Below are positions 4,620 through 64,000 of a DNA stretch of 64,000 nt, piece after piece. The notes below the pieces were generated by a model, which was given only the letters and a program-made list of their open reading frames with translations, was not told the origin of the DNA and ran no database searches. The DNA is taken from NCBI GenBank assembly GCA_028717265.1, contig JAQUOE010000005.1, positions 4,190 through 68,189 on the forward strand, in the 5' to 3' direction. The stretch's first letter is position 1; every line of letters starts with the position of its first letter. The position numbers were made by a program, and so were the translations under genes. This stretch comes from Actinomycetota bacterium. GTDB taxonomy: Bacteria > Actinomycetota > Humimicrobiia > Humimicrobiales > Humimicrobiaceae.

Positions 4620-4628
4620 AAAGGTTTT

Positions 4629-7677: not shown

Positions 7678-7690
7678 CAGGAAAAAATAA

Positions 7691-8467: not shown

Positions 8468-8468
8468 T

Positions 8469-9443: not shown

Positions 9444-9461
9444 AAAGCTTTTCACTGATGA

Positions 9462-11300: not shown

Positions 11301-11302
11301 AA

Positions 11303-47748: not shown

Positions 47749-48267
47749 GTAACTCTGGTAACGATACTTCTTATAGAATAACTTTTTGATAAACTCTATT
47801 AAACCGGTCAGTATAAAAAAGGAATCCATAGTCTCTGAAAGCTTATTTTTAAAAGCAAAGAAAAGTCTGCTGCCAATAGATGTGACCACAACAGAAGAGA
47901 AAAAAATAATGTATATTTTATTTGGAAAACTCTTTTGCCATAGAGTGGAAAAGGTCTAAACAATGACTTTTAAATTATTGAAATTGAAAATAAAAAAGAG
48001 AAAATTAATAAAGAAATTGATATACTGGCGAAAATGTAGATAAAATTGCCACCGATGGGCTAATGGCAGAGGCAGTTCACCCGGCTTCTACCTTAAAAAC
48101 CCCAGGGATTTAGTACAGGATTTAATCAATGCTGAGGATAATCTAGCTAGTTCAGGTGTTACATTCAGGAAGAAAATTAAAGTTATTTAAGTATAAAAGC
48201 TCGGTATAATTTAAACCACTGGCTAATAATTATAACAAGTTAAAATCTTATTAGTTCTAATTATAAT

Positions 48268-49233
48268 TTATATAGGCATAGCAATATTACTAAAATCCTT
48301 CAATTTTTTAATAGCCAATATTATTGCTCCTTCTACCGGGCTTCTCACAAGTGGTTTAAAATTAATATGTGGAAACTTTTCCTTTAATTTATTTACTACG
48401 ATATTTTTAAAATACCTTTTACAATTGAATAAGCCACCAACAAAAACAAGATCAAACTCCTTATTTTTAAAGCCAAGCTTATTAGCAACAGCAGTAACAG
48501 AAATTACGGCTTCCTCCGCTTCACCGGTTAATATATCAATACTTATCCTGTCTTTTATTTGTGCAGTCGTACATACTATTTTAGCCAGTGAGCTAATTCT
48601 TTGTTTTGAAAATGTTTCTTTATATACCCAATTGGGTATATCCAATACTTCTTTTAAGTTCAAATTTTCCAATATTATTTTAGACAGCAAAGTTTCTTCA
48701 CCGCGCCCGTCATAGGCTCTCATAACTGCTCTTAAAGCTTTAAGACCTACATTGTAGCCGCTGCCTTCATCTGCAAGAATATAATCCCAGCCAGTCGATA
48801 CTACATTTTCCCCTTCTTCATTAATTCCAAAACAGTTGGAACCAGCCCCAGCAATAATTATTATCTTATTTTTACTTTCACTTCCTGCCTCAAGACCAAT
48901 TCTTGTATCATTACAGATAATAGTTCTTTTTGGATAAAGAAAACTTCTTAATCTGCTGTTAAATGCAATTTTCTTATAAATTTTAGAGTCCTTTTCTGTG
49001 TTGTTACCTGCAAAACCGAAACAAGAACTTATAAAATGAACTTTTCCATATACTTCTAAATTTTTAACGGCATCAAAAATAGCTGTATTAAGATTTTTTA
49101 TCGCATTATTTATTCCAACACTTTTACAATTACTTGAACTTGAAATGGCTTCGCTAACGACTTTTCCATTAGTTTCTGCAATTTGTACAGTGGTTTTTGA
49201 GCCACCTCCATCAACTGCTAAGATATACTTCAT
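48268..49233 (-). CDS. BadF/BadG/BcrA/BcrD-type ATPase (GlcNAc-kinase-like ASKHA)
   Basis: ILAVDGGGSKTT N-terminal phosphate-1 motif. 321 aa. Confidence 0.7.
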   Translation of the reverse strand: MKYILAVDGGGSKTTVQIAETNGKVVSEAISSSSNCKSVGINNAIKNLNTAIFDAVKNLEVYGKVHFISSCFGFAGNNTEKDSKIYKKIAFNSRLRSFLYPKRTIICNDTRIGLEAGSESKNKIIIIAGAGSNCFGINEEGENVVSTGWDYILADEGSGYNVGLKALRAVMRAYDGRGEETLLSKIILENLNLKEVLDIPNWVYKETFSKQRISSLAKIVCTTAQIKDRISIDILTGEAEEAVISVTAVANKLGFKNKEFDLVFVGGLFNCKRYFKNIVVNKLKEKFPHINFKPLVRSPVEGAIILAIKKLKDFSNIAMPI

Positions 49234-49312
49234 TTTTACCCTGATACCTGATTTATTAAGAACAACTAAAGCTTTTTTATAAAATATTTATATGAAATTC
49301 AGTAATTATATT

Positions 49313-49489
49313 GACACACGCATGTAGTAGTATGCGCTTAGTCCTGTATGAAAAGAAATGTCAAGTATAATACCCGCATTCTTAAACAAGACGGTCTAAG
49401 ATTAGTGAAGGGAGGCTAATCCTAACCATTTGACCACTACATACGTGTGTCTATGGCATAATTACTTAAAATTTTTCAGTAATTATGCC
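49313..49489. repeat. nested inverted repeats in the BadF-Gfo spacer
   Basis: Outer imperfect inverted repeat (GACACACGCATGTAGTAG / CACTACATACGTGTGTC), an inner perfect 12-bp hairpin (GGCATAATTACT...AGTAATTATGCC), and a flanking direct repeat TTCAGTAATTAT. Confidence 0.3.
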
Positions 49490-49501
49490 CTGTGAAACAT
49501 T

Positions 49502-50650
49502 TTATTTAACTTCTTTCCACTTTTCTTTTAGCGCACTGTCAAATATAACATCGCAAAGAATCAATTCTCTGTACCCATCTTCGAAAGTTGGAAAATCAAA
49601 CCCGGGTTCTTTTCCTGCTGAGATTTGTTTATATACGTTATTGAATAGTTGTTTTGACGTATCCGGAAATCCTTCAGCATGACCGCCAGGATAACTTGAA
49701 TATTGTCTTACTGAACTATTCATTATGGAAGGATCTTTTATTAACAGCTCATTTTTAGAATCTCTTTTCCCGATCCACATTTCATTGGGATTTTCACTAT
49801 TCCACGCTATTGACATCTTCGTCCCATATAATTCAAAGGCTAATCTATTCTTTCTACCTGCCGCAGCCTGATTAACTGTCATCGAACCATGTGCCCCGTT
49901 ATTAAATCTTAAAAGAACTGTTGCGTAATCTTCTGTATTTATCTTTATATCTTTGTAGTCCGAAGACTTAAGAATTTTCCCGGTATAAGTCTCAATAGAC
50001 TTTACAGGTTTTTTTCTTGTTTTGAAAAACGTGCAAAAATCTGCGTATACCTTTTCTATTTTTATTCCACTAATATACTCGACCATATCCAGCCAATGAG
50101 AGCCTATATCTACCACTGCTCTGGATTTGCCACTAAATTCCGATTCCAATCTCCAGTTATAATCTGTCCGATAAAGTAGCCAGTCCTGCTGATAAGAACC
50201 ATTTATTGCCAATATATCTCCTATTTCTCCGGCTTCTATCATTGCTTTTGCTTGCTGCACTAAAGGATAGAACCTCAGGTTAAAATGCACTGCTGCCACA
50301 AGTCCTGTTTTTTTTACCAGCTTCAACAAATCTCTACCTTGCTCAGGATTGATGGCTAATGGTTTTTCACATACAACATGCTTTCCAGCCAGTAATACTT
50401 CTTTTACAATAGGGTAGTGCAGATGGTTTGGTGTACATACATGAACAACTTCTATAGATTTCTCCGCAAGTAACTCTTTATAGTCTCCATAAAATTTATC
50501 CACATTTAACTGTTCTGCTTTTTCTTTTGCCACTTTTTTATTTATGTCAGCCGTAGCAATTATATTTACATATCCCAGGCGTCTTAAAGCTTCAATATGA
50601 GATGGTCCGATAAACCCGGTTCCTATTACTCCTGTATTAATTTTTTTCAT
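49502..50650 (-). CDS. Gfo/Idh/MocA-family NAD(P)-dependent oxidoreductase
   Basis: IGTGFIGPSHIEAL Rossmann start and the EKPL motif. 382 aa. Confidence 0.85.
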   Translation of the reverse strand: MKKINTGVIGTGFIGPSHIEALRRLGYVNIIATADINKKVAKEKAEQLNVDKFYGDYKELLAEKSIEVVHVCTPNHLHYPIVKEVLLAGKHVVCEKPLAINPEQGRDLLKLVKKTGLVAAVHFNLRFYPLVQQAKAMIEAGEIGDILAINGSYQQDWLLYRTDYNWRLESEFSGKSRAVVDIGSHWLDMVEYISGIKIEKVYADFCTFFKTRKKPVKSIETYTGKILKSSDYKDIKINTEDYATVLLRFNNGAHGSMTVNQAAAGRKNRLAFELYGTKMSIAWNSENPNEMWIGKRDSKNELLIKDPSIMNSSVRQYSSYPGGHAEGFPDTSKQLFNNVYKQISAGKEPGFDFPTFEDGYRELILCDVIFDSALKEKWKEVK

Positions 50651-50689
50651 ATTAATTCCAACTTTTAGTATTAATCTTGATCTATTTTT

Positions 50690-51664
50690 CTATGCCCAGT
50701 ATATTTCAGCAGGTTTTTCCTTTATCACCACTTCCTTTAAGAATTCAATAGTCTTTCTCATTCCTTCTTCACCGGACATAAGGGCATCTTCATGTTCAAT
50801 GCTTAAAACATAATCATAATTTTCCTTGGACAGCTGTGATACAAAATTTTTCCACCAATCATATCCATTGCCGTAACCAACGACTCTAAACAACCATGAT
50901 CTATTCTTTACATTTACAAATGATTTAGTGTCCAGAACTCCATTTAGCGCAGTATTGTAATTATCAATTTTTGTATCTTTGGCATGTACATGAAACAGTG
51001 CTCCTGCCTCAGATATTTTTTTCATTGAAACAATAGGGTCAATTCCCTGCCAGAATAAGTGGCTTGGATCAAAGTTTGCTCCAATTACATCTCCCACATT
51101 TTCTCTCAGCTTAAGAAGAGTCTCAGTATTATAGACAACAAATCCTGGATGCATTTCAAAGGCCAGTCGGACTCCGTGATCTTTTGCAAATTTACCAATT
51201 TTTTTCCAATAGGGGATTACTTTCTTCTCCCACTGCCAATTTAAAATTTTAGGATAATCATTTGGCCAGGAGCAAGTTACCCAGTTAGGATATTTATCAT
51301 TTTCGGAACTACCGGGACACCCGGAAAGTAAGGTAATTGTTGATACACCAAGCTTTTCCGCTAAAAGAATTGCGTTGTTTGTCTTCTCATTATGTTCTCT
51401 GGCTATGGATTCATCAGGGTGAAGAGGATTCCCATGTACGGCTAATGCACTTATTAGAAGATCTCTTTTTTCTACTTCCTCTTTATATAATTTTAATTTT
51501 TCATTACTTTTTAAAAGTTCTCGAGAGTTACAATAAATACTACCCGGGTAATTTCCCGCACCCAGCTCCACTGCTTCCAATCCTAAATTTTTAACTTTAT
51601 CTAACATATCCTCTAATCTGGGATATGAATTATAAAAAACAGCTGTTATTACTCCTACTTTCAT
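50690..51664 (-). CDS. xylose-isomerase-like TIM-barrel protein, family B paralogue 1
   Basis: Paralogue of 58669..59610 (shared LGLEAVELGAG...HVHAKD...EHED). Confidence 0.8.
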   Translation of the reverse strand: MKVGVITAVFYNSYPRLEDMLDKVKNLGLEAVELGAGNYPGSIYCNSRELLKSNEKLKLYKEEVEKRDLLISALAVHGNPLHPDESIAREHNEKTNNAILLAEKLGVSTITLLSGCPGSSENDKYPNWVTCSWPNDYPKILNWQWEKKVIPYWKKIGKFAKDHGVRLAFEMHPGFVVYNTETLLKLRENVGDVIGANFDPSHLFWQGIDPIVSMKKISEAGALFHVHAKDTKIDNYNTALNGVLDTKSFVNVKNRSWLFRVVGYGNGYDWWKNFVSQLSKENYDYVLSIEHEDALMSGEEGMRKTIEFLKEVVIKEKPAEIYWA

Positions 51665-52130
51665 TTTAACTCTTCCTTTTTTAATGTTTTTTATTTATTA
51701 TGGCGTTTTTATTGCTAGTAGTGTAAAACTGGTTCATACTGTCAAATGAGTCTATTTTTTCTCCTGGTTTTTTATACTCTCAATAAACTTTTTAATATCA
51801 AATAAAAAAATGCCGTTTTCACAGAATTGTTTTTTAATATATTAAATTACTTCCCAATAATATAAATTTAAAATATAACAACTTAAAGAAAGGTTATATT
51901 AATTAATCTTTTTATAATTAAGATATTATTTACAAATAATAGCAAAATGTTTTTCACAAGTAAATATAAAATGTCAAAATAATATGTAAATGGTTATATA
52001 ATTTTCTGTAAATTTATTAATTTATAAGTAGGGAAACACTTAAGTTTTAATGAAAATAATAAAAAGGAAATAAAGGAAAGAGTAGATGATAAGATAAAAA
52101 AGAATACGTCACCTTGGTCAACAGTTATAT

Positions 52131-53174
52131 TTATTCGATTAATGATGTAATCACAGAGGACTCTCGAATTATAAACTCTACATCAAGTAATATTTTACGT
52201 AAAGCTACATTTGGGTCAGAAATTTTTTCGATCAGCAATTCGCAAGCTCTAAAACCTAGCTGGAATTTAGGCTGTTTTACGGTTGTAATAGTCGGATTAG
52301 TCATTATTGCAATGTCGACGTCATCGAAACCAACAACAAGCAAATCCTGGGGGATTCTGAGTCCCACATTTGAGGAGGCTTTAATCGTTGCTGCTGCAAA
52401 AACGTCTGAAATAGCAAAAATTGCATTTGGTCGATTAGACAAATTAAGTAGGTGAGAGCAGGCGGAAACAGCCATGCTGTAATCAATTTCCGGTAAGTTT
52501 ACAATCCAGTTATTTTCAATTGGTATATTTGCGTTTTTGAGTGCATTCAGATACCCGCTAAGCCGATGCTGCGCATATTTATAATGCATCGGGCCGTTAA
52601 TTAGTGCAATTTTTCTCCTATTGTTAGATAAAATATACTCCATAACCCTTTTGCTGGCCAGAGTATCATCAATGCTGACATATGAAATATCTGAATCTTC
52701 ATTATATTCACAACACTGAACCAGAGGAACAGTTGAGTTCAATTTATCAAGTAATTCTGAAGATAAGTAGTTTGAGATTATTAATCCTGCTACATTAAAT
52801 TTTTTTAAAACATCTAATAAATGATTGAAATTCCACAGGTTAATATCGCTCTCGTTAATAAGGATATGATACCCGTGACGGGTGGCTGCAGCTTCTGCAC
52901 CATTTACAATTTGACTGTAAAAAGGATTATTTAAAGAAGGTATATTGAATATTATCAAGCTACTATTTTTAGGTTTAGGCTTAATAACAATTTCATTTGT
53001 ATCAAACCCCAGCATATTCATGGAATCTATAACTTTTTTTACTGTTTCATGTTTTACATGAGGATAATTATTCAGTATTCTTGAAACTGTTGCAATGGAT
53101 ACTCCTGCTTCTTGAGCTATTCTGACATAATTTGCTTTCTTTTTATTTCCCTTATTCTTTTTGATTCTATACAT
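52131..53174 (-). CDS. LacI-family transcriptional regulator
   Basis: HTH NYVRIAQEAGVSIATVSRILN plus a periplasmic-binding-fold effector domain. N-terminal ~14 aa extension, so start uncertain. Confidence 0.85.
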   Translation of the reverse strand: MYRIKKNKGNKKKANYVRIAQEAGVSIATVSRILNNYPHVKHETVKKVIDSMNMLGFDTNEIVIKPKPKNSSLIIFNIPSLNNPFYSQIVNGAEAAATRHGYHILINESDINLWNFNHLLDVLKKFNVAGLIISNYLSSELLDKLNSTVPLVQCCEYNEDSDISYVSIDDTLASKRVMEYILSNNRRKIALINGPMHYKYAQHRLSGYLNALKNANIPIENNWIVNLPEIDYSMAVSACSHLLNLSNRPNAIFAISDVFAAATIKASSNVGLRIPQDLLVVGFDDVDIAIMTNPTITTVKQPKFQLGFRACELLIEKISDPNVALRKILLDVEFIIRESSVITSLIE

Positions 53175-53494
53175 ATCTGCATTATATCATATTATTTTTG
53201 ATTTTTTCATAATATTATAATTTTTTGAATAGAAATACATAAATATAATTGGGATTAGTATATATATTTACAATATTAATATGAAAAAACTTGACAAATT
53301 TTATGTAAATGTTTTAAAATTTAAAAACATTATCTAAGGTTAATGATATATTTTTAGGGGCAAGGCAGTATAGTTCATATCACTTAGTTTTGCAGTACGT
53401 TTCTGATTGTAAATATTAAATTATCTTAAGGTGATAATAATAAAAAGGAACTAAATTTATAAAAAAGATCGCAGGGTTAATAATTCTTAAATAG

Positions 53495-54091
53495 GACAAA
53501 TGGAAAAAAAGATATTTTAAAATCAATAAAAAAGAAAAACTAAAAGAAGGAGAGAAGTTTTACACTGAAAAATAATTATCTGAAAAATTTAATATTAACC
53601 GTAACACAACAAAGTAAGCGATAAAGAGACTAATACAAAAAGAATCTTTAGTAAAAGGAGAATGTAACTATTTTATAATATCTAGACCGACCGCAAAAGG
53701 TTTAATGGTTTCTTTAATGAGTATAATTAACTTCAAAGAAAAAGATAATAAAAATTTAATTGAGGTAAGAAAACTTTTAGAAGCATATGTTACAACCACG
53801 GCTATTGGTCGAGCATTAAAGGATAATATTAAGGAGCTATCCGAGATAATTAATAGGATGGAAGAAAATATTAATAATTATGATATTTTCTCTGACTATG
53901 ATTATCATTTTCACATTAGGCTAGCAAAAGCATCAAATAATCCTATCTTTTATGAACTGATAAAAGGTATAAGTGAATTATTGAAAAAAGAGATAAAAGA
54001 ATTTTCCATATTTAAAAGGGATAGAAAGAAAGCGCAAAGACTTCATAAAGCTCCGTTAGAAGTGTTAGTGGTAAAAGATAAGGGTCAATGA
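53495..54091 (+). pseudogene. GntR/FadR-family regulator with decayed HTH (three in-frame stops) and intact FCD ligand domain
   Basis: One frame reads ...YTEK*LSEKFNINRNTTK*AIKRLIQKESLVKGECNYFII..., which aligns to the GntR HTH. Stops are TAG 53492-94, TAA 53573-75 and TAA 53615-17. The FCD domain is intact as the 128-aa ORF 53705..54091. Confidence 0.55.
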
Positions 54092-54343
54092 TTAAAAATA
54101 TGAACCTACACTTTGATAATATTGAAGCATGTTTCCAAATATTAAATCTTTAAGCAAAAAGGATGAATAATTCTAACATGTCTTAGTAAGATTATAGAAT
54201 TAGGTTTAGACAGTATTATATGAAAGGAGGAGTGTTAAGAAATTTAGAAGTAATATTCTTTAATAAAGGAGGTGGTGTGTATTTGCTTAGAAAAAAACAA
54301 GGTTTGTTTGTAAATATAGAATACTTAGTTTTATTAGGGAGGT

Positions 54344-55744
54344 TTGAAATTGAAAACATTTAAGATGCTAGCTTTATTTGTAATCGTAGTGTTAATGATG
54401 ATTATGGGGGTTTCAGGTTGTAAAGATACAGAAACTTCAACAAGTACTGCAGTAGAAGAAACTGCAGAATCAGAGGAATCAACAACAGAAACTGCAGAAC
54501 CAGAAGAACAACAAATTGTTCTGAAAATATGGGATATGTACACAGATGTAGGCCATGGTTCTGGTGGGGAAGCGATGGAAACACTTATTGACATGTATAA
54601 AAAAGCTAATCCTAATGTAGAAATTGAAAGAACTGTTATCGGTAGTGAGAATATGCAAGACCAAGTAAGTTTATCAATGGCTGGGGGAACAATGGCAGAT
54701 TTAGTTGAAACTTGGCCGGCATGCGGTGTTTTATCTGGTTATGCACAGGATGGAGAAGTTTATGATATGACTGATAAAGCAGAAGAATTTGGATGGTTTG
54801 AGCTTATGAATAGTTATTTAATGCTCGAGTGCTCAACTAAAGGAAGGCTTTATGGTTTACCATGGGAATTTGATCGTCCTGTTATATATTACAATAAGAC
54901 CATCTTTGAAGAATTAGGATTGAGCGAACCAAATAATTATGATGATTTCATTACTATTCTAGATACAATAAAAGCTGATGGTAAATATGATCCAATAACA
55001 ATAGGAAATGGAAATAGATGGCCGATTTGTAATTTATATGATGAAATACGTGCAGTCACAGTCGGTAAAGAAAAAGTATCAGATCTTTTCTTTGGAGATG
55101 CTGATTGGGATGATCCGGAATTCGTTGAAGCATGGACAATCCTGCTGGATTGGATAGAAAAAGGGTATTTTATTGATGGCTTTAATGGAGTAAAATATGG
55201 AGATTCAAACAGTAATTTTATAATGAAAAATGCTGCTATTAGCATAGATGGTAGTTGGATTTTAAGTAATTTAGTTGAAGCAGAGGTTGAAGGCGAATTT
55301 GAGGTAGGAGTATTTCCTTTTCCGATGATTAATGAAGATTTACCTCCAACGAGTCTAGCGGGTAGTGGGGCAAATTGGATTATTTCATCAAAATCTGCGC
55401 CTGAGGTTCAGGAAGAAGCTATGAATTTCCTTAATTTTATATTATCGGATGAAGCAGCTCAAATATGGATTGATGGTGCTTCCGTAATACCCGGTTACAG
55501 TGACATTGATTGGGATAGATTCACTGTAGATCCCTTAATGGCCGAGGTCTATGAGATAAATGAAGGTAAGGAAGATACAACATGGTCGCATGTGACAGTT
55601 CCAGAAAGTGTAGCGGAGACTCTTTATTCAACTTTTCAGAGTGTAGCAGGGCTGACTATGACTCCTGAAGAAGCTTTAAATCAGATTGAAGAGGATTGGG
55701 AAGAAGCGAAAGCTGAAGGCAGAGTCTGGAATCCGCTTCAGTAG
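54344..55744 (+). CDS. ABC transporter substrate-binding lipoprotein (CUT1, SBP family 1; oligosaccharide/glycoside type)
   Basis: Signal peptide with a VSGC lipobox, an acidic TETS/EE linker, then an SBP_bac_1-like fold. Confidence 0.8.
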   Translation: MKLKTFKMLALFVIVVLMMIMGVSGCKDTETSTSTAVEETAESEESTTETAEPEEQQIVLKIWDMYTDVGHGSGGEAMETLIDMYKKANPNVEIERTVIGSENMQDQVSLSMAGGTMADLVETWPACGVLSGYAQDGEVYDMTDKAEEFGWFELMNSYLMLECSTKGRLYGLPWEFDRPVIYYNKTIFEELGLSEPNNYDDFITILDTIKADGKYDPITIGNGNRWPICNLYDEIRAVTVGKEKVSDLFFGDADWDDPEFVEAWTILLDWIEKGYFIDGFNGVKYGDSNSNFIMKNAAISIDGSWILSNLVEAEVEGEFEVGVFPFPMINEDLPPTSLAGSGANWIISSKSAPEVQEEAMNFLNFILSDEAAQIWIDGASVIPGYSDIDWDRFTVDPLMAEVYEINEGKEDTTWSHVTVPESVAETLYSTFQSVAGLTMTPEEALNQIEEDWEEAKAEGRVWNPLQ

Positions 55745-55821
55745 TAAAATATAGGAAAATGGTTGAATAATATAATTTTAACAATATCTTATAAGGATGT
55801 ATCTCTCTGTAGCATTTAGCT

Positions 55822-56703
55822 ATGGAGAGATACATAAAAAAAATGAAAAACTTAAGAAACAATTTACTTGGCTATACATTAGTTCTACCTGCTTTTTTAA
55901 TTTATGGTCTTATTGTTCTTCTTGCAGTTTTTCAGAACTTTTATTACAGTTTTTTCAAGTTTACCAATATAACTTCTTACGAGTTTGCAGGTCTGGATAA
56001 TTATATCAATATGTTCAAAGATAAAGTATTTTATACTGCCATTGGGCATAATCTTTTATGGGCTTTTATGATTATAATTCTGCTGTTTTTATTTTTAACC
56101 ATAGCAGTTTTCTTATCAAAAATTAAGTCTCGCACCATTCTTGGTGCCATATACTTTTTACCAGCTACTATACCTTTTGTAGTAAGTGCAATAATGTGGG
56201 GCTGGATATATAATCCTAATTTTGGAATACTGCAAAGTATTGCAGATTTACTTAAATTAAATTTTTTAAGACAGCAATGGCTAGGAGATCCTAAACTAGC
56301 TTTTTATTCATTATTTTTAATTGGAGTATGGACCTATTTTGGTTTTACGGTTATTATTTTTTTAAGTGCTCTTCAGAATATTGATAGAAGTATCTACGAT
56401 GCAGCGAGAATTGACGGAGCGACAGAAACAAAAATCTTTTTTCATATAACGTTGCCTGCTATTAGAAATACATTGTCTTTCTTGATAGTGTTCTCAATCA
56501 TCATGTCAATGAAAGTTTTCGATATAATTTATGTTATGACACAAGGTGGACCTGGTTATTCTACAGAAGTAATGTCCACTTATATATTCAAATTAGCTTT
56601 TAGAGGACAGAATATTGGTTATTCTTCCGCTATATCTATAATTTTAATTATATTGGTATTAAGCTTGGCGGTTACTGTCTTAAGGAGAAATCAAAAGGAA
56701 TAA
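55822..56703 (+). CDS. sugar ABC permease (MalF/UgpA-like)
   Basis: Six-TM BPD_transp_1 protein with the EAA-like loop ...DAARIDGA. Confidence 0.85.
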   Translation: MERYIKKMKNLRNNLLGYTLVLPAFLIYGLIVLLAVFQNFYYSFFKFTNITSYEFAGLDNYINMFKDKVFYTAIGHNLLWAFMIIILLFLFLTIAVFLSKIKSRTILGAIYFLPATIPFVVSAIMWGWIYNPNFGILQSIADLLKLNFLRQQWLGDPKLAFYSLFLIGVWTYFGFTVIIFLSALQNIDRSIYDAARIDGATETKIFFHITLPAIRNTLSFLIVFSIIMSMKVFDIIYVMTQGGPGYSTEVMSTYIFKLAFRGQNIGYSSAISIILIILVLSLAVTVLRRNQKE

Positions 56704-56708
56704 AAAAG

Positions 56709-57518
56709 ATGAAAAAGACTTTTATATGGTTGTTTCTATTTGCATTTATTTTATTTTCAATATTACCATTTATAATTGTTATTTTTACTAGCCTTAAAAC
56801 TAATCAAGAAATGTACGCTAATGTACTTGCACCACCATCTTCGTTTTATTTGGATAATTATTTATTTGTATTGTCTGAGGCTAAATTTTATTTAAATTTT
56901 TTAAATAGTTTGTATATTTCTATTCCAGTTGTAATATCTATATCAGTTCTTTCTACTTTAGCTGGTTATGCGTTTTCGAAGATTAATTTTTGGAAAAAAA
57001 ATATTCTTTTTTTCATAATTTTAATAGGATTAATGCTGCCATTGCCCTCAATTATTATTCCCATATATTTAAATTTAGCTAAATTAGGTTTTTTAAATAC
57101 TCGTATTGGAGTAATTTTAACGCAAATTGGAATCGATCTTCCGTTTGCTATTTTTTTTATGAGGTCATTCTTTAATGATGTCCCTAATGAAATTATAGAA
57201 TCAGCTCGGATTGATGGTGCAAATGATTTGCAAATAATAATGAAGGTGATGGTTCCATTATCTAAATCTTCATTGGGAGCTTTAAGCTTAATACTATTTA
57301 TGTGGTCTTGGCAGAGCTATATAGTTCCTTTAGTGATTATTACTGATAATAACCTGAGACCTTTAACGGTAGCATTAACTGATTTTGTAGGTAGGTATAT
57401 TACAGCTTATACGTATATTGCTGCTGCTTCAGTTCTCATTTTCTTACCAATAACAATTTTATTTATAATTACTCAAAGAAGGTTTATTGAAGGCATCACT
57501 GCCGGATATGGCAAATAA
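56709..57518 (+). CDS. sugar ABC permease (MalG/UgpE-like)
   Basis: BPD_transp_1 protein with the ESARIDGAN EAA loop. Confidence 0.85.
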   Translation: MKKTFIWLFLFAFILFSILPFIIVIFTSLKTNQEMYANVLAPPSSFYLDNYLFVLSEAKFYLNFLNSLYISIPVVISISVLSTLAGYAFSKINFWKKNILFFIILIGLMLPLPSIIIPIYLNLAKLGFLNTRIGVILTQIGIDLPFAIFFMRSFFNDVPNEIIESARIDGANDLQIIMKVMVPLSKSSLGALSLILFMWSWQSYIVPLVIITDNNLRPLTVALTDFVGRYITAYTYIAAASVLIFLPITILFIITQRRFIEGITAGYGK

Positions 57519-57577
57519 TAAAAGTTTAAAAATGTATCTAAAGATTTTAGTGAAACTGGAAGAGGGGAGCATAATAA

Positions 57578-58603
57578 ATGTTAGGTGTTAAATTCTTAGG
57601 AAAGGAAAAGGTTGATGTAATTGAATACCCAGATCCTGAGCCAGGATTCAGGGAGGTTGTGGTAAGAATAAAGGCTTCTGCACTATGCCGAAGTGATTTA
57701 AATATCTATCATGATGTGAATCTAGATAGGAAAAGAAAAATGAATGTGATCCCCGGGCACGAAGCTTGTGGGGTAGTCGATATTTTAGGCGATGGTATTT
57801 CTGAGAATGAAATTAAAGTAGGTGATAGAGTAGCGATTTATCTTGGCGTTGGTTGCGGATATTGTGAATACTGTCGAAAGGGTTGGTATATTTTTTGTTC
57901 ACAGAGGAAGATTCTGGGCTTTGATATTAATGGAGGACATGCAGAGTTTATTAAAATTCCTGCAGAAAATTGCTTAAAAATCCCAGAAAAAATAAGTTTC
58001 ATTGAAGGAGCATTGTCTACCGATAAATTCGGTGGGTTGTATCATGCCCAAAAAACCCTAGAAGTTTCAGGGAAAGATACGGTAGCGATATTTGGCATAG
58101 GACCAATGGGCCAGATGGCTGTTCTAATGGCCAAAGCTTTAGGGGCAAAAGTAATTGCAGTGGATGTTGTGGGGAGCAGGCTGGAATTCGCAGAAAAAGA
58201 GGGAGCAGATTATATAGTTAATGGTAAAAAAAAGGATGTTATATATGAAATAAATAAATTGACCAACAAAGTTGGGGCGGATATAGCTATTGATTGTTCC
58301 GGAAATCCTATTGCCCAAAGCAATGCAATTGATTGTATAAAAAAAGAAGGTAGTGTTGCTTTTATAGGTGAGTCGAAAGTTTTACAAATTAATCCAAGTA
58401 AGCAGTTCATAAGAAAGCAGATAAAAGTTATAGGATCATGGTACTTTCCTGTTTGGGAATATAGTGAAATCGTGAATTTAATTATATCTAAAAATTTAAA
58501 TTTGGAAAAATGGGTTACAAATAAATTTAAAATTGAAGAAGCAAAAAAAGCTTATACACTTTTTGATAAATATCAAGCTGGGATAACAGTATTTACTATG
58601 TGA
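57578..58603 (+). CDS. zinc-dependent MDR dehydrogenase
   Basis: ALCRSDLNIYH, GHEACG and CGYCEYC motifs, GIGPMGQM Rossmann. Confidence 0.8.
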   Translation: MLGVKFLGKEKVDVIEYPDPEPGFREVVVRIKASALCRSDLNIYHDVNLDRKRKMNVIPGHEACGVVDILGDGISENEIKVGDRVAIYLGVGCGYCEYCRKGWYIFCSQRKILGFDINGGHAEFIKIPAENCLKIPEKISFIEGALSTDKFGGLYHAQKTLEVSGKDTVAIFGIGPMGQMAVLMAKALGAKVIAVDVVGSRLEFAEKEGADYIVNGKKKDVIYEINKLTNKVGADIAIDCSGNPIAQSNAIDCIKKEGSVAFIGESKVLQINPSKQFIRKQIKVIGSWYFPVWEYSEIVNLIISKNLNLEKWVTNKFKIEEAKKAYTLFDKYQAGITVFTM

Positions 58604-58668
58604 AAGTTCTTTGATTTTTATCAGGAAGGTGTAACCGATTATTATATTTTTGTAGTGAAAGGTAAATT

Positions 58669-59610
58669 ATGAAATTAGGAATGATGGCAAATTGTTTTTC
58701 AGATAAAACATTGGAAGAAGTTTGCATAATCGCAAGGGAAGAAGGCCTACAGGCAATTGAACTTGCTGCTGGTTGCTATGTTGGTAAAGCGCATTGTAAT
58801 CCAGAGATACTTTTGGGGGATAAAGGTGCGCTTGAAAAATTTAATAAAACAATTTCATCATATAAGTTGGAATTGAGCTCACTATCATGTCATGGAAATC
58901 CAGTTCACCCAGACAAAAGAATAGCAGATAAGCATACTGCTGACCTTAAAGCAGCTTTAGAACTGGCTGGCAAGTTGGGAGTGAAGGTAGTGACTACATT
59001 GGCAGGCTGTCCAGGGGCTGCTGATGATGAAAAATATCCTAATTGGATAACATGTCCAACCCATTTTGAGGAGCTAGTAAAATGGCAATGGGAGGAAAAA
59101 ATATTACCATTTTGGAATGAAATGATTAAAGTGGCTAAAAAATTTAATGTACGTTTTGGTTTTGAAATGGCCCCCGGAGATGTAGTATATAATCCTGAGT
59201 TATTACTTAAGCTACGTGAGAAAGTTGGTGCTGAGGAAATTTCCTGCAACTTTGATCCAAGCCACTTATTTTGGCAGGGTATTGATCCGTTAAAGGTCAT
59301 CAGGCGTCTTGGAAATGCAATTGTTCATGTTCATGCAAAAGACTGTAGGATAGATTCCGCTGTGGCTGAATGGAGAGGTGTATTGGATTGGAAAAATTTC
59401 GATGATGTGTCAAACAGAGCCTGGTATTTTTCTACATGTGGATATGGTCATGATGTTTTGTTCTGGAAGGATTTTATGAGTAATCTAAGGTTGATTGGTT
59501 ATGACGGAGTTATTAGTGTAGAACAAGAAGATCCCACCATGTCGATAAATGAAGGCTTAAAAAAGTCTATTAGCTTTCTAAAGAATATTTTATTTTATGA
59601 AGAGAGCTAA
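58669..59610 (+). CDS. xylose-isomerase-like TIM-barrel protein, family B paralogue 2
   Basis: Paralogue of 50690..51664. Confidence 0.8.
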   Translation: MKLGMMANCFSDKTLEEVCIIAREEGLQAIELAAGCYVGKAHCNPEILLGDKGALEKFNKTISSYKLELSSLSCHGNPVHPDKRIADKHTADLKAALELAGKLGVKVVTTLAGCPGAADDEKYPNWITCPTHFEELVKWQWEEKILPFWNEMIKVAKKFNVRFGFEMAPGDVVYNPELLLKLREKVGAEEISCNFDPSHLFWQGIDPLKVIRRLGNAIVHVHAKDCRIDSAVAEWRGVLDWKNFDDVSNRAWYFSTCGYGHDVLFWKDFMSNLRLIGYDGVISVEQEDPTMSINEGLKKSISFLKNILFYEES

Positions 59611-59685
59611 AGTCTTAATAAATGGTAATAATTAATATTGATAAACATATTTAGTGATGCGTTGGACTTAATAATAAACTTTTAA

Positions 59686-61014
59686 TTGGAATTTATTAAA
59701 AAGATATTAATTATAGAGAATGATTTTATGATTTTTCAAGAGGATTTAAAAAAGGGACTGAATGATTGCGAGATAGATAATCTTGTAAAAAAATCATTAG
59801 CGAAATTTAACAAATTAAATAAAATACTTATTATACATCCGGATTCCACAAGAAATGATTTTACGGATAAAATTGTTAAAGCCATATTAAATAGTATTGA
59901 AGAAAGAGAATATGAACACATTCACTTTTTAAACGCCTGTGGGACTCATGGGATTATGACAAAAAAAGAATTTTTGAACAAATTAGGTTTGGAAACAATT
60001 GGAAAAAACATGTTTTTTTTTAATCATATATTTAATGACAAAAGTAATCTCCGAGTTGTTGGTGAAGTTCCTTCTTCTTTTATTTCGAAAATAACTAATG
60101 GAAATTTAAAGCAGGAGATACCAGTTACTATAAATAAAATGATTCTTGAAAACTATGATGTCATCCTGACAATTGGGGGGACAGTACCTCATGAGGCAGC
60201 AGGTTTTTCCGGAGGACTGAAAATTTTTTTTCCGGGCGTTTCCGGTTCAGAAGTGATAGATCTCTTTCACTGGGTCGGCGCATTGATTGGGATTCCAAAT
60301 ATTATAGGGACAATTAATAATTATGTGAGAGAAGTGATTAACGTAGCTTCCAAATTCATATTCAAGGTGCTAAAAAAACCGGTACTATGTTTTAATATGA
60401 TTTATGATGGAACAGGCGATAAAGTAAGACCTTTAGGACTATATATAGATTATGGTTTTAAGGGTTTTATAAATGCTTATAAAAAAGCGGCTTCTGCCAG
60501 TTTCAAGATTCATATCAAATATTTGGATAAACCCATAGATATTGCTGTGCAAGAAATTCCGAAATATTATAGTTCCGTTTGGACAGCTGCAGGAAAAAGT
60601 TCTTCAAAGTTGCAAAGAAAAGGGGTCATAAAAGGGGGGGGAGCAATAATTATTTATGGTCCTCATATAAAATGTTTTCATTCCAATAAATACATGGACG
60701 AAATGATAAAACTTATCGGATATCATTGCAAAGATTTCGTATTAGATTTTCTAAAAAAAAATCCGGAGTTTTCAAGGAATATAGCTTCTCATGTAATTAA
60801 TGTAAACGGACCCGGATATTTTGATCGTTTATCTAAAAAGGAAATATCTGATTTGAAGATTATCTTAGCTACCTCGATATCGAAAGATGTTTGTGAGTCA
60901 GTTAATCTTGGTTATATTGACCATGAAACTCTAAGAAGAGAAGACTTTCAGACATCTGAAAAATTATGGATAAAAGAAGGGGGAAGGTATCTTTATAACT
61001 TAAAAGGCAGATAG
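59686..61014 (+). CDS. LarA-family (DUF2088) protein, paralogue 2
   Basis: GTVPHEAAGFSGGLKIFFPG block homologous to paralogue 1 and the LarA lysine region. 442 aa. Confidence 0.65.
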   Translation: MEFIKKILIIENDFMIFQEDLKKGLNDCEIDNLVKKSLAKFNKLNKILIIHPDSTRNDFTDKIVKAILNSIEEREYEHIHFLNACGTHGIMTKKEFLNKLGLETIGKNMFFFNHIFNDKSNLRVVGEVPSSFISKITNGNLKQEIPVTINKMILENYDVILTIGGTVPHEAAGFSGGLKIFFPGVSGSEVIDLFHWVGALIGIPNIIGTINNYVREVINVASKFIFKVLKKPVLCFNMIYDGTGDKVRPLGLYIDYGFKGFINAYKKAASASFKIHIKYLDKPIDIAVQEIPKYYSSVWTAAGKSSSKLQRKGVIKGGGAIIIYGPHIKCFHSNKYMDEMIKLIGYHCKDFVLDFLKKNPEFSRNIASHVINVNGPGYFDRLSKKEISDLKIILATSISKDVCESVNLGYIDHETLRREDFQTSEKLWIKEGGRYLYNLKGR

Positions 61015-61100
61015 AATAATCAGTAGCATTGTTTTTTAAATTTGAAATACTAAAAAAGTGTAATCTAAAAGGATGGTTAGGTCTATAAGGTGATTTTATT

Positions 61101-62117
61101 ATGAATAATAAGCCTAAGTTTTTATTGAATATGCATAGAGATATGTTTGATTATTGTTTTAGTTCCGAGGATAGAAAGAAATTATCGCTGTTAGTGGAAT
61201 TAATAGGAGGAATTCCATCTAAGAGTATGTATACAAAAGAATGGATTCGAGCAAACATTAAAGAAGCTGAGGGATGTATAACCGGCTGGGAATCAATACC
61301 TATAGATGAGCATATAATTAATTGTTCGAAATCTTTAAAGATAATTTTTCATACCGCAGGGACTGTCAGGGGAATTTTTAATAATATGAATATAAAAAAT
61401 TATAATTTAAGGATTGTGTCAAACGCAGGAGTTATAGCGATATATGTTGCAAGATTTACTCTAGGACTTATATTAAGCGGTCTAAAGGGAGTTTATTATT
61501 ATAATAATAAATTACATAAATTTGGAAAGGGGGGTTGGGATATAAAAAAGAATTTATCTCACGGATACTATAAGAAGAAAATAGGAATAATCAGTCTGGG
61601 ACATATAGGGTATAGACTAATAGGTCTACTAAAAAACTTTGATTTTGAAGTCTTGGTTTATTCTAATCACCTCACTGATAAAAAGGCAAATGAGCTTGAA
61701 GTATATAAAACAGAATTAGATGAATTAATGGCACATGCAGATGTTGTGGTATTACTAGCCCCAGATCTACCTAACTATCATCATATGATAAATGGGAAAA
61801 ATATACAACTATTGAAAAACAATGCTATTTTCATAAATGTAGCAAGAGGTGGACTTGTTGAGGAAAAAGCTTTAATAAAAGAATTAAGAAAGGGTTTTAT
61901 TACCGCTTTTTTAGATGTTACTGATCCGGAGCCCCCGGAAGATCATAGCCCCTTTTATGATATCCCAAATTGCATTCTTACTCCACATATTGCTGGTTGC
62001 ATCGGGAATGAATGTTATAAACTTGGAGAGAATACTCTGGAAGAAATAAAGCTATATATGAAGAATGAACCTTTAAAATATGAGATGTCAAATGAAGAGC
62101 TGAATTATAGAGCATAA
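61101..62117 (+). CDS. D-isomer-specific 2-hydroxyacid dehydrogenase family protein
   Basis: GIISLGHIGYRL NAD-binding loop and the catalytic region ...LTPHIAG. Confidence 0.75.
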   Translation: MNNKPKFLLNMHRDMFDYCFSSEDRKKLSLLVELIGGIPSKSMYTKEWIRANIKEAEGCITGWESIPIDEHIINCSKSLKIIFHTAGTVRGIFNNMNIKNYNLRIVSNAGVIAIYVARFTLGLILSGLKGVYYYNNKLHKFGKGGWDIKKNLSHGYYKKKIGIISLGHIGYRLIGLLKNFDFEVLVYSNHLTDKKANELEVYKTELDELMAHADVVVLLAPDLPNYHHMINGKNIQLLKNNAIFINVARGGLVEEKALIKELRKGFITAFLDVTDPEPPEDHSPFYDIPNCILTPHIAGCIGNECYKLGENTLEEIKLYMKNEPLKYEMSNEELNYRA

Positions 62118-62194
62118 TTAATATTTTAGATATGTATCATAAATAGTAATAGATTTGGAAGTTATTATAAAGTTATAAAGGATAGGAAATTAAG

Positions 62195-63085
62195 ATGGTA
62201 AATTTATCTGCTTTCCCAAAATGTTGGATAGAAGATATCACTAAAGGGAAAATGACTCTTTATAAGTGGATGGAAATTTCTACAGAACTAAAATGTGATG
62301 GTCTGGAAATGTATTTTAGATTTTTAAAATCACATGAGATCGAATACCTGAAAGATTTAAGAAATAAGGCTGAATCCTTGGGTATGGAAATACCGATGAT
62401 GTGCTATTCTCCTGATTTTACTTTCCCTGACAAAGACTTAAGAAAAAAAGAGGTTAAGAAACAAATCGAGATGATAAAGGTGATAGCGGAGCTTGGAGGA
62501 AAATATTGCAGAACTCTTTCCGGGCAGTTTAGACCTGAAATAACCATTACCGAAGGTATCAAATGGGTAGTTGAATGTATCGAATCCTGTCTTCCTACTG
62601 CTGAAAAATATGGAGTAAATCTAGTGATAGAAAATCATTATAAAGATGATTTTTGGAAAAACAAAGAATTTGCCCAGAATAAAGAGATATTTTTAAGTAT
62701 AATAAATCGAATAGAATCCCCATATTTTGGAGTTCAGTATGATCCTTCTAATGCAATTGTTGCTGGAGATGACCCAATCGATTTGCTTAAGATACTAATT
62801 AATAGAGTAAAGACCATGCATGCAAGTGACCGAAGTATATCAGATGGTAATTCCATTGAGCATATTCAACAATACAATGGAAAAATAGGATACCCTGATG
62901 AACTTATCCATGGTGTCATAGGAGAGGGTGTAATTGATTATGATTCTATTTTTTCAATTCTTTCAAACTCAAAATTTAATGGATGGATATCAATTGAAGA
63001 TGGAATGAATGGTTTTGAAGAAATGAAGAAATCAGTTATTTTCCTAAAAAAAATGATAAAGAAATATTTTAAAAGTGACAAATAA
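62195..63085 (+). CDS. xylose-isomerase-like TIM-barrel protein, family A paralogue 2
   Basis: Paralogue of 35997..36887. Confidence 0.75.
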   Translation: MVNLSAFPKCWIEDITKGKMTLYKWMEISTELKCDGLEMYFRFLKSHEIEYLKDLRNKAESLGMEIPMMCYSPDFTFPDKDLRKKEVKKQIEMIKVIAELGGKYCRTLSGQFRPEITITEGIKWVVECIESCLPTAEKYGVNLVIENHYKDDFWKNKEFAQNKEIFLSIINRIESPYFGVQYDPSNAIVAGDDPIDLLKILINRVKTMHASDRSISDGNSIEHIQQYNGKIGYPDELIHGVIGEGVIDYDSIFSILSNSKFNGWISIEDGMNGFEEMKKSVIFLKKMIKKYFKSDK

Positions 63086-63275
63086 ATTATAGATAATCAG
63101 TGCAGCAAAGAGATATCGGAGAAATCTTTTATATAGAAGTTCTATGGATTTCTATTCATGTCATGTTTTTATTGTGGATAAGGTTTTAATTAAAGCAAGA
63201 TAGATTATTGTTTTATTTACATTTCATTATACTGTTTTTAATAATGTAATACTAAAAAAATCATGGAGTTGCATA

Positions 63276-63677
63276 ATGAAAAAGATAACTACAGGTGTCG
63301 CAGGTACTGGTTTTATAGAACCAGTTCATGTTGCAAATTCAAGGAGGATCCCTAGCGTAGACGTTAAAGCTATTGTGAGTCATAGCATAGATTGGGCAGC
63401 TGCATTGGCTGAAAATCTATGTATAATGAAATTTTATGGTAATTGGGAAGAAACGATTAAAGACAATACCATGGAAGTAGTGTATATTGCTACATTAAAT
63501 GATTTGCATTACCCTATCGCGAGAATGTGTTTAGAGTTTGGAAAACATGTAATTTGTGAAAAACCATTTGAGGATCCACCGAAAACTAGTCTACCCATAA
63601 TGTTAAGATTTGGGGCTATTGAGGGGCCCTGTCAAGTAAAAATATTAAAGAGCGTAAATAAAAATAAGTCTATTTGA
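63276..63677 (+). pseudogene. Gfo/Idh/MocA oxidoreductase truncated after ~100 residues
   Basis: N-terminus VAGTGFIEPVH...HVICEKPF parallels 49502..50650 up to the EKPL motif. It then diverges and stops at 133 aa, with transposase-like sequence following. Confidence 0.55.
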
Positions 63678-64000
63678 ATTTGATAGCATGAAAATCCAGG
63701 GATGTTAACATATTAAAAAACAAAGTACTCCTCCTTTAAAAGGCCTATGATAAACTTAATTTATCAATAACCTGAGTTTATGCCAAAGGCGGTACACGGT
63801 GAAATACATAGGATTAGATTTGTACAAAAAAAGTATTTTTGCAACAGTTTTAGGAGGAGACGGTAAAATTTTATCAAGACCAAAATAGAGCCAACCACCA
63901 GAGATATCTGCTACTACCTTAAAAACGAGGGCAGAAGAGATGAACTCTCTATGGCTATGGAAGCATCATATAATTGGCCCTACTACTACCGCGCAGTTGA
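63578..64000 (+). mobile_element. IS110-family-like insertion sequence (partial; transposase N-terminus with in-frame TAG)
   Basis: From GTG 63799 the frame reads VKYIGLDLYKKSIFATVLGGDGKILSRPK*EPTTRDICYYLKNEGRRDELSMAMEASYNW... This resembles the IS110 (DEDD) transposase N-terminus and its MEAT-like block. The frame runs off the window. The left end is inferred at the point where the Gfo homology stops. Confidence 0.4.

Follow-up and report, generated by a model that had tools for sequence, protein, structure and literature searches.

Two gene units built around LgdB2-like and LgdC-like homologues in a metagenome-assembled genome labelled Actinomycetota

Described 3-keto-sugar systems and the layout of the region

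The closest described counterpart of the genes considered here, which lie between positions 48268 and 64000 of a 64,000-nucleotide stretch of contig JAQUOE010000005.1 (the whole stretch is called the window below) from a metagenome-assembled genome (MAG) labelled Actinomycetota bacterium, is the levoglucosan dehydrogenase (LGDH) pathway of Bacillus smithii S-2701M. In this pathway LgdA (44 kDa) oxidizes levoglucosan at C3, LgdB1 (30 kDa) carries out β-elimination, LgdB2 (36 kDa, Mn2+-dependent, and a weak eliminase as well) hydrates 2-hydroxy-3-keto-D-glucal to 3-keto-glucose, and LgdC (43 kDa), an NADH-dependent reductase, turns 3-keto-glucose into glucose (Kuritani et al. 2020, PMC7676230). 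True LgdA proteins are ~70% identical to one another (Kaur 2023, PMC10066097), and among 265 LgdA genes LgdB1 was found beside 253, LgdC beside 151, and LgdB2 beside 57, in a network analysis that took in the neighbors of LgdA only (PMC10066097). The hydration assigned to LgdB2 is also the reaction of AtHYD (PDB 8RO4), the 2-hydroxy-3-keto-glucal hydratase of an oxidative O-/C-glycoside deglycosylation route in A. tumefaciens (Kumpf et al. 2023, PMC10628242). In the broad-specificity oxidative glycosidase cluster of Bacteroides/Alistipes (BT2156-2160 / AL1-AL5), oxidation, elimination, hydration, and reduction are likewise performed by Gfo/Idh/MocA enzymes and a protein of the sugar-phosphate-isomerase fold (Nasseri et al., bioRxiv 10.1101/2024.03.25.586180). 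The E. coli YcjQ/YcjR/YcjS enzymes with YcjNOP and YcjW, which convert a D-guloside to a D-glucoside via 3-keto intermediates, belong to the same families, with similarity to the window proteins at the superfamily level.

This AT-rich part of the window (GC ~0.29–0.34) contains two independent units that share one core, a LgdB2-type TIM barrel and a LgdC-type Gfo oxidoreductase, rather than a single locus. Unit A is transcribed on the minus strand from 53174 to 48268 in the order LacI, TIM1, Gfo1, and BadF-type kinase, and unit B follows on the plus strand. Pfam scans covered all open reading frames (ORFs) of the window of ≥250 aa, and a phmmer sweep was made with many TIM-barrel queries. The ORFs named in an earlier prediction made from the sequence alone (the original prediction) were all recovered in the ORF list, at the positions and in the families assigned to them there (Pfam), and the kinase at 48268-49233 and the regulator remnant at 53705-54091, which it had overlooked, were added to the inventory. 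The features are as follows.

48268..49233, minus strand: BadF/BcrAD-type sugar (hexose / N-acetylhexosamine) kinase, last in unit A (Pfam BcrAD_BadFG, 136 bits)
49502..50650, minus strand: Gfo1, LgdC-like Gfo/Idh/MocA oxidoreductase (Pfam GFO_IDH_MocA, N- and C-terminal domains)
50690..51664, minus strand: TIM1, LgdB2-like TIM barrel of the xylose-isomerase fold, 324 aa (Pfam AP_endonuc_2)
52131..53174, minus strand: LacI-family regulator, first in unit A (Pfam LacI and Peripla_BP_1/3)
53705..54091, plus strand: remnant of a GntR/FadR-family regulator, 128 aa (Pfam FCD, 57 bits, without a helix-turn-helix (HTH) domain)
54344-55744, plus strand: lipoprotein solute-binding protein (SBP) of a CUT1-type importer (Pfam SBP_bac_1/8; lipobox VSGC)
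55822-56703 and 56709-57518, plus strand: two permeases of the CUT1-type importer (Pfam BPD_transp_1 twice)
57578..58603, plus strand: Zn-dependent polyol/sugar dehydrogenase of the medium-chain dehydrogenase/reductase (MDR) type (Pfam)
58669..59610, plus strand: TIM2, second LgdB2-like TIM barrel, 313 aa (Pfam AP_endonuc_2)
59686..61014, plus strand: LarA2, homologue of the GntE2-type nickel-pincer nucleotide (NPN) hexonate 2-epimerase (Pfam Lar_N; match to PDB 4NAR)
61101..62117, plus strand: D-isomer-specific 2-hydroxyacid dehydrogenase (2-HADH; Pfam 2-Hacid_dh_C, 159 bits)
62195..63085, plus strand: TIM3, "family A" xylose-isomerase-like TIM barrel (Pfam AP_endonuc_2)
63276..63677, plus strand: Gfo2, pseudogene of a second LgdC-like oxidoreductase, called as 133 aa (Pfam N-terminal (Rossmann) domain only)
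63799..64000, plus strand: probable IS110-family transposase fragment that continues past the window end (N-terminal "KYIGLDLYKKSIF...", then an in-frame stop)

Unit A and the levoglucosan enzymes

The loci of Bacillaceae and Caldanaerobius were taken as true lgd clusters because their ~390-aa Gfo proteins exceed the cut-off (650) of the LGDH equivalog model, with 749 bits for B. taeanensis Gfo394 (locus L079) and 760 bits for Caldanaerobius Gfo390 (locus L002). These clusters have the order LacI, TIM (~270 aa), CUT2-type SBP, LgdA (Gfo ~390 aa), ATPase, permease, Gfo1-family Gfo, and TIM323, and the sizes and termini of their proteins agree with those derived for the B. smithii proteins from published masses and primers, the termini being translations of the cloning primers (Table S2, PMC7676230):

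LgdA: primer terminus M-KKLNVGMIG; Gfo394, MKTLNVGLIG
LgdB1: primer termini M-KFGYQTNT ... FEKTNQV; TIM273, MKLGYQTNTW...FEKANKA
LgdB2: primer termini M-KLGVFTVLY ... VEEMWWA; B. taeanensis TIM323, MKLGVFTVLYQD...GEMWWA
LgdC: primer termini M-EKIKVGIIG ... VKVKAD; Neobacillus Gfo, MEKIKVGIIGTGFIG...KWVKVQ...

The start of the Neobacillus LgdC-position protein, MEKIKVGIIG, is that of B. smithii LgdC. Only one of 120 homologues of B. taeanensis TIM323, P0150 from a Logan assembly, carries both LgdB2 termini, and this protein, which is not the deposited LC529899 sequence, was used as a proxy for LgdB2. In the anaerobic thermophile Caldanaerobius polysaccharolyticus (KE386495.1, L002) the full levoglucosan-type cluster is present with LgdB2 split into ORFs of 135 and 176 aa, likely a frameshift or pseudogene.

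Comparison of Gfo1 with curated models gave its best match to the NCBIfam LGDH model NF052479, at 210 bits over the full length, far below the cut-off for LgdA itself, and the Neobacillus LgdC-position protein shares this profile with 208 bits. Gfo1 is 49% identical over its full length to the LgdC-position proteins of Bacillus taeanensis and Neobacillus and 32% identical to LgdA. Among solved structures the best match is LGDH (6A3F, 167 bits); DgpA (88 bits), inositol dehydrogenases, and glucuronide 3-dehydrogenase all score well below it. E95 and H185 are conserved without exception in the Gfo1 family, and residues of the same numbers form the catalytic pair given for LgdC of Paenarthrobacter LG01, with E103 and H193 as the LgdA counterparts (Kaur et al. 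2023, PMC10066097). The 49% identity and the presence of both residues would place Gfo1 with LgdC.

TIM1 shares 55% identity with P0150 over 325 aa, and TIM2 is 46.5% identical to P0150 and 50% identical to the C. saccharolyticus TIM323. By sequence, TIM1 and TIM2 match in the PDB only 2ZDS (uncharacterized SCO6571; the best match of TIM2, 81 bits) and, weakly, AtHYD, which has only 17–18% sequence identity to TIM1 (29 bits, phmmer). The AlphaFold2 model of TIM1 (pLDDT 85.7) superimposes on AtHYD with a TM-score of 0.80 (Foldseek, E 4e-17), second to uncharacterized 2zds and the highest among characterized structures, with IolE (0.60–0.64), YcjR (0.63), and ketose 3-epimerases lower. Full-length identity to P0150 and, for TIM1, the structural match to AtHYD assign TIM1 and TIM2 to the LgdB2 family, and reciprocal phmmer scores agree with the LgdC and LgdB2 assignments of Gfo1, TIM1, and TIM2. 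Four residues of TIM1 (E170, D199, H227, and E290) recur without change in TIM2 and in 26 LgdB2-family sequences. The usual metal site of the xylose-isomerase-like fold is Glu-Asp-His-Glu, and by analogy with this site the four residues are likely to be the metal ligands. From 46–55% identity to proxies of characterized enzymes we infer that TIM1 would act as a 2-hydroxy-3-keto-D-glucal hydratase (3-keto-glucose 1,2-dehydratase) and Gfo1 as an NAD(H)-dependent 3-keto-D-glucose reductase / glucose(-side) 3-dehydrogenase.

The original prediction regarded the locus as a candidate for oxidative (3-keto) glycoside cleavage, with the Gfo as C3-oxidase and the TIM barrel as β-eliminase or hydratase. 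A Gfo/TIM pair belonging to a 3-keto-sugar route is borne out by the homology to LgdC- and LgdB2-position proteins, but these correspond to the last two steps and not to the initiating oxidase and eliminase. There is no LgdA homologue in the window, the only Gfo besides Gfo1 being the LgdC-like Gfo2 fragment, and no window ORF scores above ~20–39 bits against LgdB1-position proteins (the ~275-aa β-eliminase). An FAD-dependent glycoside 3-oxidase or OGE/CGE-type eliminase was not found in the window, and no scanned window ORF matches DUF1080 (PF06439). Membership of the Bacteroides cluster is not indicated either, with Gfo1 scoring, on the Bacteroides models for glycoside and disaccharide 3-dehydrogenases, 60 bits for BT_2158 (cut-off 750) and 56 bits for BT_2159 (cut-off 650); in further difference from that cluster, neither a secreted nor a Tat-signal oxidoreductase came up in the analyses made, and the window proteins appear cytoplasmic apart from the SBP. 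The low DgpA score of Gfo1 separates the pair from the DgpA/DgpB-DgpC system, for which no specific search for a small DgpC-like ORF was made; in Foldseek, DgpB-C ranks 32 for TIM3 (TM-score 0.66) and falls outside the top 50 for TIM1. Since the homologues present cover hydration and reduction, and LgdA and LgdB1 are absent, cleavage of a glycosidic bond is unsupported.

Like the LGDH pathway, unit A has a LgdB2-type TIM barrel, a LgdC-type Gfo, and a LacI gene at the head of the operon, and the LgdB2-type TIM2 and LgdC-type Gfo2 recur in unit B. In contrast to that pathway, the window lacks LgdA and LgdB1, a dedicated hexose kinase is added, the transporter differs (CUT2 in true lgd clusters, none in unit A, CUT1 in unit B), and unit B also carries an MDR, an NPN epimerase, a 2-HADH, and a further TIM barrel. 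Because of the missing LgdA and LgdB1, the other transporter, and the added genes, the substrate is probably not levoglucosan.

Unit A is conserved in related genomes. The closest relatives of Gfo1 with known context, 93% identical, occur in a JGI metagenome (3300029288, L004) and an ENA contig (L005), where the order LacI, TIM, Gfo, and BadF kinase is identical, and a third relative (L007, Gfo1 87% identical) retains TIM, Gfo, and kinase. At the same positions, LacI of L004 is 91% identical, and the kinase is kept in all three relatives with 92% amino acid identity. Nucleotide synteny between the window and L004 is limited to 48057-53333 and stops ~160 bp upstream of the LacI gene; on this side L004 and L005 have a divergent binding protein of the CUT2 type (Peripla_BP_4), and on the other side unrelated genes. 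Because synteny with the relative covers only this interval, unit A is a discrete ~5.3-kb block whose flanks differ among related MAGs, and its adjacency to the CUT1 importer is specific to this genome. The region is therefore not the single locus of the original prediction, given that a CUT2 SBP takes the place of the CUT1 cluster in the relative and that no shared operator was found. A comparison of the LacI–TIM1 spacer with the sequence upstream of the plus-strand genes revealed no common operator and thus no link between LacI and unit B, and an inverted-repeat search of the intergenic regions returned only AT-rich, low-quality palindromes. One block of the LacI–TIM1 spacer is conserved between the window and L004. 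A 19-mer from this block recurs once, with 3 mismatches, within the coding sequence of TIM2, and this recurrence was judged to be due to chance and rejected as a LacI operator (1/100 shuffles gave 2 matches). Scans for promoters (98 promoter-like sites, 81 expected) and terminators (9 terminator-like sites, 7 expected) were at background in this AT-rich DNA.

The best PDB matches of the kinase are the MurNAc/GlcNAc kinase 8zo3 (164 bits) and then the broad-specificity Sulfolobus hexokinase 2e2n (100 bits), a pattern that fits phosphorylation of a released hexose, with an amino-sugar substrate also possible. It is reasonably probable, in our judgment, that the two units are organized around the LgdB2-type TIM barrel and the LgdC-type Gfo and that unit A is a cytoplasmic 3-keto-sugar trunk under LacI control. 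TIM1, probably metal-dependent, would hydrate 2-hydroxy-3-keto-D-glucal to 3-keto-D-glucose, Gfo1 would reduce the 3-keto-glucose to glucose with NADH, and the BadF-type kinase would trap the released hexose by phosphorylation. Like B. smithii LgdB2, TIM1 may also slowly β-eliminate a 3-keto-glucoside or 3-keto-anhydroglucose, and Gfo1 in reverse could oxidize C3 of the incoming sugar, resulting in a redox-neutral cycle. The substrate of unit A might come from its own generation of 3-keto-sugars (a two-enzyme "GH4 in trans") or from salvage of 3-keto-sugars made elsewhere.

Several points weigh against the trunk assignment. The identification of LgdB2 and LgdC relies on termini of 7–10 residues, gene order, and the proxy P0150, and identities of 46–55% would leave substrate specificity unfixed. 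With no LgdA, LgdB1, DUF1080, OGE, or DgpBC-type initiator, the module may merely salvage foreign 3-keto-sugars. The nearest relative couples unit A to a monosaccharide-type CUT2 binding protein and has no glycoside importer, and the kinase, whose top match is a MurNAc/GlcNAc kinase, could act on an amino sugar. Members of the Gfo family are spread over at least 596 species genomes and have many different neighbors, which makes one common function unlikely, and unit B, without its Gfo and regulator, may be non-functional.

Unit B and alternative readings

Unit B opens with the FCD ORF, which lacks an HTH domain and has no HTH-bearing ORF upstream of it, and is called with the same 128 aa in the independent assembly L087; because neither the ORF nor any upstream ORF could supply the DNA-binding domain, it is considered a remnant of a GntR-family regulator. 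The importer that follows (54344-57518) has the Pfam architecture of CUT1. In CUT1 systems (TCDB 3.A.1.1) a family-1 SBP acts with two BPD_transp_1 permeases, often with a shared ATPase of the MsmK/MsmX type encoded elsewhere. As originally predicted, the importer has no ATPase of its own, with no ABC_tran gene in 48-64 kb by Pfam. The structures nearest to its SBP bind oligosaccharides (4g68 and the chitin-oligosaccharide proteins NagB1/B2, ~100 bits). The MDR is 52% identical to an MDR of C. saccharolyticus and 50% identical to one of Neobacillus, both located beside LgdC- and LgdB2-like genes; its other matches are generic (Tdh and ADH ~157 bits, IolM 165 bits).

LarA2 aligns nearly over its full length (residues 33-442) with 4NAR (448 bits, E 3e-133), the T. 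maritima GntE2/LarAH20, which was established experimentally as a D-mannonate/D-gluconate 2-epimerase (Desguin et al. 2020, PMC7583248). Its gene is called with 428 aa in L087, and the true start is likely near 59728. LarA2, lying between a LgdB2-like TIM and the 2-HADH, differs from GntE2 in its genomic context, and the larB, larC, and larE genes for NPN synthesis were not seen in the window. The 2-HADH gave only sub-threshold NCBIfam matches (PGDH 136, glyoxylate reductase 112, and GhrB, a 2-ketoaldonate reductase, 90 bits). TIM3 and the barrel at 35997-36887, the fourth of the window, are 63% identical and TIM1 and TIM2 46%, with ~22% between the pairs. The two TIM-barrel subfamilies proposed originally were hence confirmed, but the paralogues number four and not five, no fifth having been found in the window by Pfam on ORFs ≥250 aa or by phmmer. 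The AlphaFold2 model of TIM3 (pLDDT 91.5) gave an undifferentiated Foldseek list with TM-scores of 0.70–0.78 for Art22 (top), 2zds, AtHYD, IolE, and ketose epimerases, and a structure-based function for TIM3 was dropped, the matches being spread over isomerases, epimerases, dehydratases, and a hydratase.

The homology of Gfo2 ends after residue ~98, just past its CEKP motif, near 63570. Over ~100 aa it shares 43–49% identity with Gfo1 and with the Gfo of C. saccharolyticus, and it is closer to LgdC than to LgdA. The identical truncated 133-aa call is present in two independent Logan assemblies (L087 and L088), whose contigs stop ~150 bp past the window end. An assembly artefact was rejected on this ground; because both assemblies share the truncated gene and end at that distance, the truncation is genuine and the sequence next to it probably repetitive. 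The disruption of Gfo2 by an insertion sequence (IS), as originally proposed, is borne out as to the truncation, whereas the IS110 likeness of the downstream sequence is only weak: its N-terminal part contains an in-frame stop, and the next ORF matches DEDD_Tnp_IS110 with E=0.024. With both its Gfo and its regulator inactivated, unit B is probably in decay, unless Gfo1 stands in for Gfo2. It would represent a second, partly decayed core (MDR, TIM2, and the IS-disrupted Gfo2) combined with an oligosaccharide-type CUT1 importer and a set of putative hexonate enzymes, namely the GntE2-like 2-epimerase, the 2-hydroxyacid dehydrogenase, and TIM3. The original view of an elaborated glycoside-cleavage variant is not supported for these genes, with LarA2 and the 2-HADH pointing to sugar-acid chemistry and the unit partly decayed.

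It is quite possible, if rather less probable than the trunk assignment of unit A, that LarA2, the 2-HADH, TIM3, and perhaps the MDR form an ordinary hexonate/sugar-acid module that came to lie beside 3-keto-sugar genes by chance rearrangement. The closeness of LarA2 to GntE2 and the GntR/FCD remnant at the head of the unit are in line with such a module, as are the TIM3 paralogue located in a separate sugar-acid cluster at 36 kb and the richness of the window from 16 to 47 kb in genes for IlvD/EDD dehydratase, DHDPS-type aldolase, DGOK kinase, SDR (short-chain dehydrogenase/reductase), and LarA1. Homologues of TIM3 elsewhere (55–65% identical, in unrelated and heterogeneous contexts) adjoin 2-HADH or SDR genes, not Gfo genes. 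The tight spacing on one strand argues in the other direction, TIM2 and Gfo2 being interleaved with the sugar-acid genes (MDR, TIM2, LarA2, 2-HADH, TIM3, Gfo2). LarA2/GntE-like genes are also found beside pairs of LgdC-like Gfo and TIM genes in an Atribacteria MAG (L061, ~12239, 220 bits) and a Spirochaetaceae MAG (L062, ~7420, 100 bits), and this occurrence in two unrelated phyla hints at a recurring functional link between the NPN epimerase and the module.

A bolder extension of the trunk assignment, which we regard as doubtful, is that the Gfo and TIM pair with its kinase and LacI is a self-sufficient, redox-neutral, two-protein "glycosidase in trans", in which the Gfo would oxidize a glucoside or anhydro-sugar at C3, the bifunctional TIM barrel would eliminate the aglycone and hydrate the resulting glucal, and 3-keto-glucose would be reduced by the Gfo again. 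LgdA and LgdB1 would then be later add-ons for levoglucosan, and the core of unit B would be coupled to the NPN hexonate epimerase in a manner suiting cleavage of a glycoside of the aldobionic-acid type (e.g. cellobionate) taken up by the CUT1 importer. If true, this would be a very widespread and unrecognized sugar-processing route (at least 596 species, many phyla).

Somewhat less likely still is an epimerization of the Ycj kind, in which MDR, TIM, and Gfo would interconvert epimeric glycosides (e.g. guloside to glucoside) via 3-keto intermediates without cleavage, the product being taken by ordinary enzymes. The families of the E. coli ycj cluster are the same (SBP and permeases of the CUT1 type, MDR, TIM, Gfo, and LacI), weak but significant matches link YcjS to Gfo1 (31%/176 aa), YcjQ to the MDR (37%/92 aa), and YcjO/P to the permeases (27–29%), and a barrel of ~278 aa (TIM278) that partners the MDR in other genomes is epimerase-like. 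The similarity of YcjQ and YcjS is only at the superfamily level, however, and an epimerase of the YcjR/TIM278 type is absent from the window, where no TIM barrel matches YcjR by BLAST; TIM1 and TIM2 are of the LgdB2/AtHYD type. A phosphorylase or hydrolase for the epimerized glycoside is also not present. In the gut Firmicute Mediterraneibacter hominis NSJ-55 (L010), strong homologues of YcjN, YcjO, and YcjP (285–320 bits) and a YcjW-like LacI are encoded a few kb away from a LgdC-like Gfo, an arrangement that connects the LgdC family with a transporter of the Ycj type.

Inositol catabolism, with Gfo1 as IolG and the TIM barrels as IolE, was named in the original prediction as an outcome that would overturn it and, with the MDR as IolM as in the Thermotoga variant, is very improbable: sub-threshold matches exist, and MDR, TIM, and Gfo genes of the families giving IolM, IolO, and IolG matches are grouped with a CUT2 transporter in C. 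saccharolyticus and Neobacillus, but every iol model stays far under its curated cut-off (IolG, TIGR04380, 126 of 355 bits; IolE, TIGR04379, 44–45 of 290 for the better matches and 37–45 overall; IolM 165 of 450; IolO 43 of 300), Gfo1 scores higher on the LGDH model than on IolG, the identity of TIM1 to P0150 and its weaker structural match to IolE than to AtHYD run contrary to an IolE role, and Pfam scans of the window showed no genes of the iolB, iolC, iolD, or iolJ type.

Outside the two units, a large carbohydrate and sugar-acid island extends over ~16800-47750, with LarA1 at 17517-18764, an IclR regulator, a CUT2 ABC system, MDR and SDR dehydrogenases, an IlvD/EDD-family dehydratase, two DHDPS-type aldolases, a DGOK-type kinase, an FGGY kinase, an ARMT1-type damage-control phosphatase, three "putative cyclase" genes, and five glyoxalase-fold genes. 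Within it, an exact direct duplication of 1,494 bp (100%; 30478-31971 and 34396-35889, copies 3.9 kb apart) spans the whole gene of a 495-aa GlpA-like FAD oxidoreductase with a BFD [2Fe-2S] domain and is either a very recent event or an assembly artefact. The adjacent SDR genes at 43692-44456 and 44492-45241 share a 268-nt stretch of 100% identity (43705-43972 and 44502-44769) and ~62% overall (rough ungapped value), which suggests gene conversion between tandem paralogues. Ordinary housekeeping genes at 4194-12052 bound the island on its left; they comprise a fatty-acid synthesis cluster (FabZ/FabA-like, FabD, FabG, FabF, AccD, and AccA) and, after it on the other strand, genes for a PASTA Ser/Thr kinase and a PP2C phosphatase. 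NCBI lists both the source MAG and its relatives (P0001, P0241, and L007) as "Actinomycetota bacterium", although the GC content of the window is ~33% and its nearest cultured homologues come from Clostridia and Bacilli; a check of this label may be worthwhile.

Distribution and significance of the LgdB2/LgdC pair

Homologues of Gfo1 with 60–66% identity occur in Caldicellulosiruptor, Caldanaerobius, Thermoanaerobacter, Pelosinus, and Christensenella, and among GTDB species genomes at least 596 stretches match the family. Context was examined in the best 80 of these (47–87% identical), which span Bacillota, Bacteroidota, Planctomycetota, Spirochaetota, Chloroflexota, Atribacterota, and Acidobacteriota. 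A TIM-barrel homologue lies ≤2 kb from the Gfo in 38 of the 80 loci and is directly adjacent on the same strand in 26, both counts being lower bounds given the single-sequence phmmer searches used.

The LgdC/LgdB2 pair is found without LgdA and LgdB1 in Neobacillus bataviensis (L084) and C. saccharolyticus (L001, CP000679.1 427632-448792), in a conserved cluster of LacI, LgdB2-like TIM, CUT2 transporter, MDR, the epimerase-like TIM278 (with IolO, psicose-epimerase, and YcjR-type matches), and LgdC-like Gfo, which looks like an uncharacterized 3-keto-sugar pathway in cultivable organisms. Because the pair occurs without LgdA and LgdB1, in agreement with the published fractions of 57/265 and 151/265, LgdC and LgdB2 look like a general trunk that is extended by specific front ends.

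Both the chemistry and the two core enzyme families have been described in the literature of 2020–2024. What appears undescribed is the stand-alone LgdB2/LgdC block with kinase and LacI, its very wide distribution, and its association with genes for an MDR, an epimerase-like TIM, and an NPN epimerase. The locus in the window is a modest example, with one of its two copies decayed, and the comparison also brings to attention the conserved cluster of MDR, epimerase-like TIM, LgdC, LgdB2, and CUT2 genes in Caldicellulosiruptor and Neobacillus. If the assignment holds, the hydratase/reductase trunk stands alone with a kinase in anaerobic low-GC bacteria and is not tied to levoglucosan, and, with the Gfo family present in at least 596 species genomes and often accompanied by an adjacent TIM barrel, the substrate range of this chemistry is directly testable.

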